Shown: positions 1,330 to 27,740 of the stretch, piece after piece
How positions within the stretch are numbered: position 1 is the stretch's first letter
How the letters are laid out: each line of letters starts with the position of its first letter
From: PVC group bacterium
Lineage (GTDB): Bacteria > Auribacterota > Erginobacteria > Erginobacterales > Erginobacteraceae
DNA: 64,000 nt
Direction: 5' to 3'
Assembly: GCA_043804695.1 (NCBI GenBank)
Contig: JAZDIV010000043.1
Coordinates: 12,736-76,735 of the forward strand
Notes under the pieces: model-generated
Database searches by the model: none
What the model was told of the DNA's origin: nothing
The model's input: the letters and a program-made list of their open reading frames with translations, nothing else
Program-made: the position numbers and the translations under genes

Positions 1330-1658
1330 TATATCATACTATAAGTTCTATTCCGAATCGTTGTGTGGGTTATAAGAATAATCAACCACGAAGATCACGA
1401 AGGAGATGTATATAAAACCAACCTCATTACCTCGGCATAAGCCTATACATTCACCACCAATTTAAACATGGGGACTGGTGCTATAATACCGTGCATCAAC
1501 CTCAACCTCGCAAAGGCATTAAACCGTGATTGATGTGCCTCATCACTTCTAATCTTCTTGGTTTTTCTTCGTGTTCTTCGTGTCCTGCTGGTGAATAATA
1601 GATGTGGGCTTCCATGCCAAATAGGAAGAGAACCAAACAAAGGTAGACTGAAGACAGA

Positions 1659-17876: not shown

Positions 17877-17906
17877 CCTTCGTGTCCTTCGTGACCTTCG
17901 TGGTTT
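17877..17906 (-). repeat. CACGAAG-type intergenic repeat containing an unoccupied IS target
   Basis: Minus strand AAACCACGAAGGTCACGAAGGACACGAAGG; related copies near 1385, 1566, 9061, 25071 and 26585. Confidence 0.7.
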
Positions 17907-23884: not shown

Positions 23885-25045
23885 TCAATCCGCCTCCTTC
23901 TTTCCCAGCTCCCGCAAAGCCGTCAGGAAGGTTTGGGAGACTTCATCCCAGTTGATGAATCGTCCCTCGGACTGTTTCTTCCCGGCCCTGATCAGGGACC
24001 CGGCCGTATCGGGACCGTTCCGGAGATGCGCGATCGCATCCTGGATCGAGGAGGGATTCCAGGGATCGAAGTACAGGGCCGCGTCCCCGCAGACTTCGTG
24101 AGCGAAGTCCAGATCGCTGGTGAGGATCGGCACCCCGTAGTGCATCGCTTCCAGATAACTTCCGCTGAATATCTCCATGAGAGAAGGCATCAGCAGGGCG
24201 TCCACATGACTGTAATAGTTAGCCAGTTCCGGTTGAAGCCACCGGGAGCCGATATTGATGATCTTCTTTTCCAGGTGTTTCTTCCTGATGTCGTCGAGAA
24301 GGCGCTTCACCGCCGATTGCTGATCCGGAGCCACGGTTATAAATAGAACGGTATCCTCCAATTGCTCCCGGTAGCGATCAAAGAGATCAACCAGAACTTC
24401 AATATTTTTATGAGGATAATATCTCGCGATATAAAAGAGCTTAAAGTGATCCGGGAATGGTTGGAACTCCGGAGGGGGAGGTGTACCCGGGGAGACGGCG
24501 CGGGTAAATTCCGAGATAGCATTGGGGAGAATGATGGACCTACCCCGGTAATTATATCGGCTGCGGATGCGGCTATCCGTCACCCGGGTAGGAGTAAAGA
24601 CAAGGCCGGTCCGGCGGAGATCCCGGGAGAAGACAAGTCGCTTGAGATAAATTTCGAATAACTCTTTTATACTGATCGAACGGCCGAAGTGACGGCGGGA
24701 ATAGAGCAGATACGGATTAAGACAGATGATGGCCTGCGGGTAAAGCTTTTTCCCCTGGTATCCCAGGCTGGACATTCCCACGACAATATCCGGCCGGAAC
24801 CGGTCCAGCCGTTTCGGAAGCAGCCGGTGATCGAAACGCCACCGCCGCGACCAGGAATGGTCGCGGAGAGGAATTATTTCCCGGTCCGGCAGGCTCTCGC
24901 AGATCGCCTCATAGCCGAGTCCTCCGGGTATGCTGACCAGATACCTCTCGCCGGGCGCGAGCCTCCCCAGGGCGGCAATGATGTTATGCCCCACCGATAT
25001 CCCCCCTCCTCCCCGGAGGGCGTGGCAGAGTAATGCGATTCTCAT
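23885..25045 (-). CDS. GT4 glycosyltransferase
   Basis: YIARYYPHKN, LMPSLMEIFSGSYLEAMHYGVPILTSD, EVCGDAALYFDP. Confidence 0.9.
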   Translation of the reverse strand: MRIALLCHALRGGGGISVGHNIIAALGRLAPGERYLVSIPGGLGYEAICESLPDREIIPLRDHSWSRRWRFDHRLLPKRLDRFRPDIVVGMSSLGYQGKKLYPQAIICLNPYLLYSRRHFGRSISIKELFEIYLKRLVFSRDLRRTGLVFTPTRVTDSRIRSRYNYRGRSIILPNAISEFTRAVSPGTPPPPEFQPFPDHFKLFYIARYYPHKNIEVLVDLFDRYREQLEDTVLFITVAPDQQSAVKRLLDDIRKKHLEKKIINIGSRWLQPELANYYSHVDALLMPSLMEIFSGSYLEAMHYGVPILTSDLDFAHEVCGDAALYFDPWNPSSIQDAIAHLRNGPDTAGSLIRAGKKQSEGRFINWDEVSQTFLTALRELGKKEAD

Positions 25046-25195
25046 TCAATTACCTTTAAAAACAATTCTAACCACGAAGTTACCATGTAGACTGCAAAAT
25101 AAAAAGCCAGTCACTCGCAATGGGTTTTAATGGGGATAAAGATCAAGTATTATAGACGAACGTTTATAAACCCCCAAACCCAAAGAGGACTGGCT

Positions 25196-26302
25196 ATGAG
25201 TAACTATATCATGGTCGGAGCTGATGTCCATGACAAAGACATTTTGATAAAGGCGGCTCACAACCGCGGCAATCCGGTTCAGCAAACGTTCAATAACACT
25301 CCCGGCGGCAGAGAAAGAATGATAGCAGCGTTGCAGGAACAGGCAGAGGAAGCCGGTAATGCTACTGTTGTTTTCGCGTATGAAGCATCGTTTCTCGGAT
25401 TCGGCCTGTACGATCAGATGACCGATGCCAGGTTTGAGTGCCATGTGCTGACACCGACCAGAATTGCCCGATCGTCCACACACCGTAAGAGGAAAACCGA
25501 TGCCAGGGATGCCGAAAGGCTCTTGGAGGTGATCCGAGGACATATCTTGGCCGGGAACGATCTGCCGTCGATCTGGATCCCCGATCTCCAGACCCGGGAT
25601 GACCGGGAATTGGTTCGGATGCGTCTGGATGTCGGGAAAAAGATCACCTCGATTAAAAGTCAAATACTTGTCCTGCTGAAACGAAACAATTTCCGCAAGC
25701 CCGCAAAAACAGGAAGTAACTGGACCAAAAAACATCGTGTCTGGCTGGCTGAGAGCGCAAAACCGGAATCGGCTTTGCCAGGTGGTGCCCGGTGCGCGAT
25801 GAACAGCCTGATGCGACAGCTGGAAGCATTGGAGCAAGAAATCGTCTATCTGGACAAGCACATCCAGGATCTCTCGGGTGCACCGCGCTATGCGGAACCG
25901 GTTCAGGAACTGAAAAAACTCAAGGGGGTGGGCACTCTGACCGCCATGGCGTACCTGACCGAGATGGGTGACCTGAGCCGATTCAACAATCGGCGCCAGA
26001 TCGGCGCGTTCCTGGGGCTGGTACCGTCGAGCTCGGAGAGCGGCCAGAAAGATGATCGCAAGGGACATATTACCCATCAGGGCTCCGGTCGGGTCCGGAA
26101 GGTGCTCTGTCAGGCCTGCAGGTCGAGAATACGCAACGATCCTCATGAGAAGGATGTGTATGGCCGAATTGTTGAACATAACCCAAAGCATAAGAATATT
26201 GCGGTTGTTGCTTCAATGCGCCGCCTGGCAATAAAAATGTGGCACCAAGGACTCAAAGCCCAGAGCCGGGCCGGCTCTTTTGAGGCCGCTGTCAATGGTT
26301 AA
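25196..26302 (+). CDS. IS110-family DEDD recombinase/transposase
   Basis: GADVHDK, AYEAS, KTDARDA (RuvC-like DEDD); GVGTLTA, GLVPSSSESG, GHITHQG; AGAGGA RBS before ATG 25196. Confidence 0.95.
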   Translation: MSNYIMVGADVHDKDILIKAAHNRGNPVQQTFNNTPGGRERMIAALQEQAEEAGNATVVFAYEASFLGFGLYDQMTDARFECHVLTPTRIARSSTHRKRKTDARDAERLLEVIRGHILAGNDLPSIWIPDLQTRDDRELVRMRLDVGKKITSIKSQILVLLKRNNFRKPAKTGSNWTKKHRVWLAESAKPESALPGGARCAMNSLMRQLEALEQEIVYLDKHIQDLSGAPRYAEPVQELKKLKGVGTLTAMAYLTEMGDLSRFNNRRQIGAFLGLVPSSSESGQKDDRKGHITHQGSGRVRKVLCQACRSRIRNDPHEKDVYGRIVEHNPKHKNIAVVASMRRLAIKMWHQGLKAQSRAGSFEAAVNG

Positions 26303-26399
26303 CGCCGCATAACCCCGTAATCGGAAAGGAAGAATTCCTTAAATACAAAGTATTCATTGTAGCAGGAGGTAGCTCGTTCGTCTGGATCGCCGATATCAA

Positions 26400-26525
26400 A
26401 ATGAGGGGGTGAAAGACCGTTTGTGTCCTGGGCCGATACCGGCCCGTCACGAAGTTTAGTCCGCCCCCGGCGTTCAGATAAACTGATCTCTCCACAGGAG
26501 ACGATCGAATAGCAGGATGCGCGAC
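26400..26525 (+). ncRNA. Predicted bridge/seek RNA of the IS1111 element (boundaries approximate)
   Basis: Two stem-internal-loop-stem modules: GTGTCCT(26423)/GTCACGAAG(26446) match the target, AACT(26481)/ATAGCAG(26509) match the circle junction. Confidence 0.75.
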
Positions 26526-26615
26526 TTCGGCGAACCCAGCTAAAACCTGTTGCGATTTTTTCTTGACTGGTATCTACATAGCAGGACACGAAGTTTTTAT
26601 AAAATAAGCTACGTT

Positions 26616-27740
26616 CTATGGTTCTCTTATTTTCATAGAAATAAGCTCCCGGTACATCTGATCATACTTCCTCGCCGTCTCCCCGATCGACCAGGACCGG
26701 GTCCTCTTTTCAGCAGCGGCCGCGCGGGAACGGGCAGACTCCGGATCAGCAAGGAGATCTCTTAATGCCTTTGCCTGCGCGGCCGTGTCTCGCGGGTCGG
26801 CCAGAATGGCGGTGTTCCCGTCGAGAATCTCCCGGTGAGCGGGGATGTCCGAGACCAGGAGAGGGCAACCGCAGGCCATGGCTTCCATCACGGTATTTGG
26901 CATTCCTTCGTAATCACTCAGGTTGATAAGGAGATCTGCGCTCTTCATCATTCCCCAGATTGTTTCCGTCTTTAAAAACCCGCAGAACTTCACCCGGCCT
27001 TCAACCCCCCGTCTTCGGGCCAGGGCCTGCAGTTCATTCAGATCTTCTCCTTCACCACAGATAAAGGCGATCGTGCGTGACTCGGGGTCGAGAGCCGCGA
27101 TCGCGTTGACGATACGTTCCACACGTTTCTGCCGGGTGAGTCTTCCGGCGTAAAGAACGAAACCTTGATCTTCTTCTAACCCCAGCTCCTGCCTGCCGAT
27201 CGGCCGGACCCGGTCAATCTCCTCAAAAGGGAGACTGTTAGAAATGACGCTTCTCAGCTTGTCCGGATAGAGAGAGCGCCAGTAATCGTCGCCCCCGGCC
27301 GAGTTGGAGACGACGGCATTAGCCTTCGTCCCTATCAGAGCGCGGAGCTTTGCCTTCCAGCCGTACCGGTATGAATCGCCAGCGTTAGACTCGCGGATGA
27401 TCCACCGCCCGGCATTGAGAACAGCCGCAATTCCTCCCATAATGTCAGTCTGGGGATTCCAGGTCTGGATAATATCCGGCCGTACCCGGCGGATCAGCCG
27501 GTAGAGTTGAAAGATGAGGCGGGGATCGTAGTTGCTCCTCCCCTTCAGCCGGTGGAGGCTAACATGCCGGCTCCAGCCCGGGGGCGGATCTCCTTTATCC
27601 CCGAGCGTGACAACGAGGACTTCATAATTGAGTTCCGCCAGACCGTGCGAGAGATACCCCAGCTGCCGCTCGGCGCCCCCGGATTGAAGCCGGGGGATGA
27701 CCATCAGAATTCGGAGGGGCCTGTGTATATCCCTATTCAT
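26616..27740 (-). CDS. GT4 glycosyltransferase
   Basis: LQSGGAERQL, YAGRLTRQK, SDYEGMPNTVMEAMACGCP. Confidence 0.92.
   Translation of the reverse strand: MNRDIHRPLRILMVIPRLQSGGAERQLGYLSHGLAELNYEVLVVTLGDKGDPPPGWSRHVSLHRLKGRSNYDPRLIFQLYRLIRRVRPDIIQTWNPQTDIMGGIAAVLNAGRWIIRESNAGDSYRYGWKAKLRALIGTKANAVVSNSAGGDDYWRSLYPDKLRSVISNSLPFEEIDRVRPIGRQELGLEEDQGFVLYAGRLTRQKRVERIVNAIAALDPESRTIAFICGEGEDLNELQALARRRGVEGRVKFCGFLKTETIWGMMKSADLLINLSDYEGMPNTVMEAMACGCPLLVSDIPAHREILDGNTAILADPRDTAAQAKALRDLLADPESARSRAAAAEKRTRSWSIGETARKYDQMYRELISMKIREP

Follow-up and report, generated by a model that had tools for sequence, protein, structure and literature searches.

We found that positions 25080-26584 of a 64,000-nt stretch of DNA from a PVC group bacterium (hereafter the window) very probably hold an intact IS110-family element of IS1111 architecture, the right end of which encodes a bispecific guide RNA (bridge RNA or seekRNA) of ~120-165 nt. 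The insertion sequence is 1505 bp long with the right-hand core copy counted; its boundaries were read from both junctions in the window sequence, and its ends are conserved in relatives. All features of the element described below lie on the + strand. With a slash marking the boundary, the left junction reads ...AACCACGA-AG/TTACCATGTAGA (aaccacgaAG), where the core AG occupies 25078-79 as the end of the left half of the target (AACCACGAAG, 25070-25079) and the first element base is 25080. The right junction reads ...CTACATAGC-AG/GACACGAAG (in longer form ...TCTACATAGC-AG/GACACGAAG), where the second core copy (26583-84) and the right half of the target, GACACGAAG, together span 26583-26593, the right flank being 26585-93. 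Because the cores stand at these positions, the empty site is aaCCACGA-AG followed by the right flank and the circle junction is CATAGC-AG-TTACC, both as reconstructed in the original prediction, which had been made from the letters of the window. On rereading the sequence, every word quoted in that prediction stood in its place, and the observation was confirmed base for base. It goes beyond chance in view of the fold stability, the covariation of the scaffold, the covariation of the loop words with flanks and ends, and the seven uninterrupted empty sites reported below.

The gene at 25196-26302 was identified as a transposase/recombinase of 368 aa by Pfam, NCBIfam and predicted structure. 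The protein matched PF01548 (E 2.7e-12, residues 7-163, profile positions 1-152 of 155) and PF02371 (E 6.6e-21, residues 237-322, profile positions 2-86 of 87), and scored 202.8 bits against the NCBIfam equivalog NF033542, 'IS110 family RNA-guided transposase' (cut-off 140). A structure predicted with 31 relatives (pLDDT 86.6, pTM 0.81) resembled the IS621 and ISCro4 bridge recombinases (PDB 8wt6-8wt9, 9t56) over the whole protein fold: the ten best PDB matches of the model were all IS621 or ISCro4 chains (E 3.9e-15 to 1.6e-13), led by the IS621 recombinase 8wt9_A (E 3.9e-15, TM 0.68/0.77), with ~360 columns matched to IS621 and ISCro4. Sequence alignment to these two recombinases covered the C-terminal domain only (E 5e-10 and 6.5e-7). 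D10, E63, D102, D105 and G283 were invariant in the 31 relatives and S282 was conserved in at least 90%, and the serine motif of the type G..P....S/T-G, as given in PMC11187229, reads GLVPSSSESG. The four acidic residues and the serine motif are the predicted catalytic positions, assigned by their location and by the published motif rather than by a residue-level comparison with IS621. The two Pfam domains, the NCBIfam match, the motif and the predicted recombinase fold point together to the IS110 family.

In a collection of 5.8 billion sequences the nearest protein was 83% identical and carried no name, while the best named match, an 'IS110 family transposase' from a Candidatus Aureabacteria MAG, was 62% identical. 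A tblastn search for a named insertion sequence relative on plasmids returned 4563 records, all below 60% identity (best 34.7%) and with generic names, and no IS110-family gene among 72,556 plasmid records was more than 35% identical to the transposase. The element differs from named IS1111 elements in host and in sequence, its hosts being uncultured PVC-group bacteria and its protein at most 35% identical to the plasmid IS110-family genes. The layout is nevertheless that of IS1111 elements such as ISEc11, ISPa11 and ISKpn4, as far as they are described in Siddiquee et al. 2024 (PMC11187229) and Durrant et al. 2024 (PMC11208160): downstream of a DEDD/Ser transposase lies a long, RNA-bearing right end (282 nt, compared with 116 nt for the left non-coding end at 25080-25195), the inverted repeats are subterminal, and the target is a repeated host sequence. 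The left end begins with TTACC and continues into the left repeat arm ATGTAGA (25085-25091), which is matched by TCTACAT at 26573-26579; the 7-bp arms lie 5 and 5 nt from the ends with the core counted on the right, and both are supported by covariation, since the two 6-mers were identical in 51 of 61 relatives and the same variant occurred on both arms in 13 of 23 variant cases. The repeat is at the lower limit of the 7-17 bp reported for IS1111 elements in PMC11208160, and the transposase exceeds the 330-350 aa stated in PMC11187229. Given this length, 'IS1111' is used here for an architecture, and a place of the protein in the IS1111 group is putative.

We then assessed the right non-coding end for RNA structure. 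The minimum free energy fold of 26390-26535 (-55.6 kcal/mol) contained two modules, each a stem, an internal loop and a hairpin, inside an outer helix, and was more stable than expected from shuffled sequence (z = -3.2, with 1 of 200 shuffles as stable). The full proposed guide RNA domain, 26378-26545, includes this outer closing helix (~26378-26400 with 26524-26545) on the evidence of the fold and of a duplex test, while the conserved two-module core spans 26402-26523. The first module is closed by GGGGG (26405-09) with CCCCC (26464-68) and by GAC (26415-17) with GTC (26459-61), and its target loop is capped by the hairpin GGGCCG-AUAC-CGGCCC at 26430-26445. The donor loop of the second module is capped by a stem-loop at 26485-26506, in which GATCTCTCC (26485-93) pairs with GGAGACGATC (26497-506). 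An RNA with two internal loops, each loop strand of which would pair with one DNA strand including the core, is also what IS621 and ISCro4 possess; there the RNA lies in the left end rather than the right, and the order of the guide strands within the loops is reversed. The core of IS621 is CT, compared with AG here.

To the window we added 141 loci of relatives, 61 from species genomes (mostly Planctomycetota, with other PVC-group MAGs) and 80 from metagenomes. By blastn, the stretch 26414-26524, which corresponds to the two modules, was conserved in relatives down to ~50% protein identity. A MAFFT alignment of 66 right-end stretches gave a consensus of 26 pairs, 20 of them with compensatory double changes, and 94.4% of cells were paired; the target-loop capping hairpin (helix 2) was paired in 92% with double changes in all three of 3 pairs, and the donor-loop stem (helix 3) in 94% with double changes in 8 of 10 pairs. 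None of 500 column shuffles reached any of five measures, and sliding the partners by 1-3 columns lowered pairing to 31-46% (max 45.6%). The fold and its covariation agree with the two-module RNA of the original prediction, which had proposed folding as a check.

A covariance model, R1, built from this alignment matched 125 of 142 sources (88 of 100 and 37 of 42), that is, the window and 124 of the 141 relatives' loci, and every match lay on the transposase strand downstream of the transposase gene. Several loci without a match are contigs ending just after the transposase gene (e.g., L073). Within the window and within the whole genome assembly R1 matched once, at 26402-26523 (101 bits, E 1.3e-27). 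The outer helix was not called by RNAalifold in sequences extended by ~24 nt on each side; among 93 distinct rows, duplexes between the stretches flanking R1 averaged -16.4 kcal/mol for cognate 5' and 3' partners vs. -12.3 kcal/mol for non-cognate ones. An Rfam scan of 24900-26800 with E up to 10 returned three sub-threshold matches (Y_RNA, lncRNA and miRNA), all of them outside the right end and to families other than guide RNAs. The Y_RNA match, on the minus strand of the left end (25101-25195), reached 23.2 bits against a gathering score of 38 and was taken as chance.

The two strands of the target loop read as guides to the two sides of the insertion point. Following the nomenclature of PMC11208160, the right target guide (RTG) is the 5' strand, UUGUGUCCU at 26421-26429, which can form seven Watson-Crick pairs with top-strand AG+GACAC and then one G-U and one A-U pair within AG+GACACGA. 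The left target guide (LTG) is the 3' strand, CACGAAG at 26448-26454, and would pair with the bottom strand because it is identical to left flank plus core. Each strand thus offers 7 of 7 Watson-Crick pairs in the window, and the two overlap at the core. This arrangement, with the top-strand match (26421-29) located 5' of the bottom-strand match (26448-54) and overlapping it at the insertion point, is that of IS1111 seekRNAs as presented in PMC11187229, where the order is given as reversed in IS110.

Covariation between guides and flanks was assessed across the family, with guide words defined as the 9 nt before and the 9 nt after the capping hairpin in the model alignments, and with element ends located independently of the guides by conserved terminal words. 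After one of the 125 matches was dropped as too short and identical guide pairs were counted once, 91 distinct pairs remained, 68 with a recognisable left junction and 78 with a right junction; locus L103 was excluded from the right-flank rows, its right flank being itself a left end. The 3' strand matched the left flank at 4.84 of 7 non-core positions (2000 permutations: mean 2.38, sd 0.13, max 2.85; n = 68). The 5' strand paired with the right flank at 4.23 of 6 positions (permuted 2.74, max 3.17; n = 78), under a two-register rule that was applied alike to observed and permuted data and that, in picking the register by best score, is biased. Positions 3-7 of the 3'-strand 9-mer equalled the flank in 84-96% of the 68 relatives vs. 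29-71% under permutation, and positions 8-9 were the invariant core AG. On the 5' strand, the signal was carried by the four to five flank bases adjoining the core; in 30 of 78 relatives, as in the window, the first core base is paired by the nucleotide directly 5' of the hairpin, and the remaining 48 of 78 end in CUU with the pairing shifted by one base. This family-wide covariation, another check proposed in the original prediction, upholds its reading of GTGTCCT (26423-29) as the reverse complement of core plus right flank, of CACGAAG as left flank plus core, and of AG as the core. Its 14-bp target, GTCACGAAGGACAC, stands only in part: positions 1-2 of GTCACGAAG had flank identities of 0.10 and 0.13, equal to the permuted values, so the left guide is taken as CACGA+AG. 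The specified target would then be about CACGA-AG-GACAC(GA), the first two bases of the 14-bp proposal belonging to the scaffold.

Given that CACGAAG is frequent in the host (397 genome occurrences, compared with 248 of its reversed form), the words CACGAAG and GTGTCC inside the element might be a captured piece of host repeat or a chance match. We consider this extremely improbable, since the same fixed scaffold positions hold different words in different relatives, each matching its own flanks, with at least 32 different 5-nt guide words in all and no permutation near the observed values. The variability of the RNA is concentrated in the loop strands, which are hypervariable, and not in the stems.

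The minimum free energy fold also pairs the two target-guide strands with each other over 6 bp, which could mean that they form a stem instead of serving as guides. Because the target is a tandem repeat, the two strands are in part complementary, and their pairing in the fold is explained on that basis. A related reading is that the right-end structure acts as DNA, either as a transposase binding site or as a folded single strand, or that it is a mere 3' untranslated region or terminator of the mRNA, with loop matches that are not guides. The mutual pairing of the loop strands would suit such a role, the fold is equally possible in single-stranded DNA, and no transcript was seen in the RNA sequencing runs searched. 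Against it, the hypervariable loop strands track their own flanks and ends, a pattern that experiments on IS621 and ISEc11 showed to be RNA guiding, according to PMC11208160 and PMC11187229, and a promoter and terminator scan found no terminator-like site in 24950-26700. A DNA or untranslated-region role for the loops is thus very unlikely, and we retain the reading of a guide RNA.

In the donor loop, the 3' strand, AUAGCAG at 26509-26515, repeats the 7 nt with which the element ends (right end plus core) and is read as the left donor guide. Of 86 distinct RNAs from elements with a recognised right end, 77 showed this identity, and the variants ATAACAG (6 rows) and ATGGCAG (3 rows) were matched between RNA and right end, so that the proposed match of ATAGCAG to right end plus core also holds in its 9 variants. 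In eight relatives (L058, L111, L122, L127, L130, L139, L140 and L146) the core copies disagree by one base: the right junction has ATAGC-GG, where AG stands in both the left junction and the RNA. Recombination into a site whose core was not identical may have left this difference. One more row differed in another way.

For the 5' strand of this loop the picture was less clear. The original prediction had set AACT (26481-84) in the module that matches the circle junction; AACU alone, contiguous with AG+TT, is a weak match of 4 nt. A better fit is GAUAA-A-CU at 26477-26484, in a register with a one-base gap, where CU faces the core AG, one A is unpaired and GAUAA faces TTACC with 4 of 5 pairs, the single mismatch in the window being an A opposite C at left-end position 4. 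This register gave 3.62 of 5 pairs with left-end bases 1-5 (n = 52), compared with 2.17, 1.81 and 0.77 for other registers, and left-end and RNA variants were matched in it (TCACC/GGUGA, TCATC/GAUGA, TTACT/AGCAA and TTATC/GAAAA). In a contiguous register, which was rejected, the last four bases showed no pattern with left-end class. In a mutual-information scan of this strand against the left end, a few cells exceeded every one of 200 shuffles, including position 6 against left-end base 2 and position 4 against left-end base 4; they owe their signal to a few clades. Discontiguous pairing of the donor 5' strand with the left end is therefore suggestive, with family support from a few variant clades, since 33 of 52 distinct rows share the left end TTACCATG and leave little variation for comparison. 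In PMC11208160, right-donor pairing in IS621 is likewise described as discontiguous, with nine RNA nt pairing with seven donor nt.

Circularisation would also bring together the halves of a putative promoter. TTGACT at 26563-26568, a candidate -35 element, and TACCAT at 25081-25086, read from the sequence as the -10, are separated by 17 nt across the circle junction, and 66 of 82 distinct right ends have a TTGAC that begins 22 nt before their terminus. A promoter rebuilt across the circle junction is described for the IS110 family, including IS621, in PMC11208160. In the linear form, the two promoter-like sites returned by the scan of 24950-26700 lay on the minus strand and the + strand had no sigma-70-like site, so the RNA would most simply be part of the transposase transcript. 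In one metagenome contig (L103:1570-1650) right end, AG and left end stand head to tail, and the 72 nt that follow equal its own left end, as expected of a circle junction or a tandem dimer; no other of the 141 loci showed this.

The element targets a junction between units of a 9-bp host tandem repeat. Elsewhere in the same genome, the 17-nt reconstructed empty site is present uninterrupted seven times, and the 12-mer across the junction occurs 13 times exactly and 55 times with at most one mismatch, vs. 8 for the reversed control. Genome-wide we counted 81 arrays of two to four 9-bp NNCACGAAG units, usually starting with AACCACGAAG, compared with 26 for the reversed control, and 19 convergent (+ then -) array pairs within 200 nt. 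Two examples of this dispersed intergenic repeat lie in the window, one an array pair at 1387-1402 (+) with 1567-1582 (-) and the other an unoccupied three-unit array, ACCACGAAG-GTCACGAAG-GACACGAAG, on the minus strand at 17878-17905, which contains the exact 14-mer first proposed as the target. Insertion into a dispersed intergenic host repeat is shared with the REP-targeting IS110-family elements ISPpu9 and ISPpu10 of Pseudomonas putida as we have them described, from which the present case differs in that the target is the unit junction of a short 9-bp tandem array and not a classical REP palindrome.

The element interrupts a 65-nt spacer (25046-25079 and 26585-26615) between two glycosyltransferase-like genes on the minus strand, at 23885-25045 and 26616-27740. 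Splitting the spacer of two same-strand genes, it may uncouple their transcription. No orthologous unoccupied site was seen among 30 relatives' genomes, four of which have orthologues of the left neighbour gene; in the two that were read, the intergenic spacer at the orthologous position was not conserved, which accounts for the lack of a true empty allele.

Whether the copy in the window still moves was judged from three observations and their counterparts. The genome holds a single copy of the element, despite 59 sites at which 17 or more of 18 guide positions could pair (wobble allowed); no RNA sequencing run searched with 25060-26620 contained it (two DNA runs contained 14-15% of its words); and the linear form lacks a promoter-like site on its own strand. 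These are the features of a resident relic, intact in element and RNA gene but no longer moving in its host, a reading that we regard as unlikely. The transposase frame is uninterrupted, of full length and retains every conserved catalytic position, and the ends, the inverted repeat, both halves of the junction promoter and the four guide strands are undamaged and agree with the flanks as they now stand. Fragmented assemblies often collapse or lose repeated elements, so the copy number in this assembly (155 contigs, 88% complete) is a lower bound. Because there is one copy although 59 sites are compatible with the guides, activity of the window copy is putative and is read from its sequence.

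For the preferred reading, an intact guide-RNA element, we infer that the RNA is made, is bound by the protein and directs recombination. The RNA, two internal loops on a covarying scaffold at the right non-coding end, would be produced from the same transcript as the transposase. Bound to the DEDD/Ser recombinase, it would bring the circularised element (...CATAGC-AG-TTACC...) to a site CACGA-AG-GACAC, the junction of two units of the dispersed 9-bp repeat, with GAUAA-A-CU pairing discontiguously with top-strand core plus left end TTACC, and strand exchange would take place at AG. Circularisation would join TTGACT and TACCAT into a promoter ahead of the transposase. The original prediction of an intact, RNA-guided recombinase is borne out in its IS110/IS1111 anatomy and in the two-loop RNA at the right end, while the words intact and RNA-guided extend that anatomy by reasoning from the sequence. 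Such a system is of a known kind, because its class of mechanism became known in 2024, with bridge RNAs predicted for 93% of the IS1111 elements in ISfinder (PMC11208160). What is new here is an element of an undescribed PVC-group clade; the class itself is already known, and the gain is for this reason one of breadth and not of principle. A full-text literature search found no paper joining bridge RNA with Planctomycetota.

Within these limits, the guide code of an IS1111-type element proved readable from one genomic copy. R1 covers a clade missing from Rfam, and the set of guide words on one scaffold forms a natural catalogue of the kind of reprogramming that underlies programmable DNA-insertion tools. 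The finding also ties enigmatic intergenic arrays of short tandem units to a mobile element landing at unit junctions. In 42 of 96 distinct (guide, flank) rows of relatives, the guide word recurs 0-5 nt (mostly 1-2) into the right flank, compared with a shuffled mean of 12 and maximum of 21, and these 42 relatives therefore sit at unit junctions of tandem arrays. Such arrays consist of 8-9-bp units of CACGGAG, CGCAGAG, CGCCAAG and other types. Many of the remaining relatives occupy the loop of short G+C hairpins such as CCCC-GAAG-GGGG, and the PVC-group clade seems to prefer repeated intergenic structures. On these grounds we tentatively suggest, as a possibility well short of even, a large undescribed PVC-group clade of IS1111-like elements that is specialised on the unit junctions of short tandem-unit arrays, which are often head to head and have no known function. 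Its 5-nt guide words would drift with the consensus of the host units, and the complementary guide strands could hold the free RNA closed until protein or target opens it.

On one 8.3-Mb Planctomycetaceae contig (L033-L065), one relative is present in more than 20 copies within a single genome. All share the left flank CACGCAGAG, and their right flanks (CCGTGGGCGTGGCACCC) are nearly alike; the common flanks show site-specific spread into a host repeat. In Geobacter metallireducens, 'class 2' putative global regulator binding sites are described in PMC2700814 as three tandem repeats of TCTCCGTS[Y], and ISGme8 and ISGme9 as lying at a fixed distance from class 1 sites. Many relatives target units of the CACGGAG type, of which TCTCCGTS[Y] is the reverse complement, and the NNCACGAAG units of the present host resemble the class 2 repeat read as its reverse complement.
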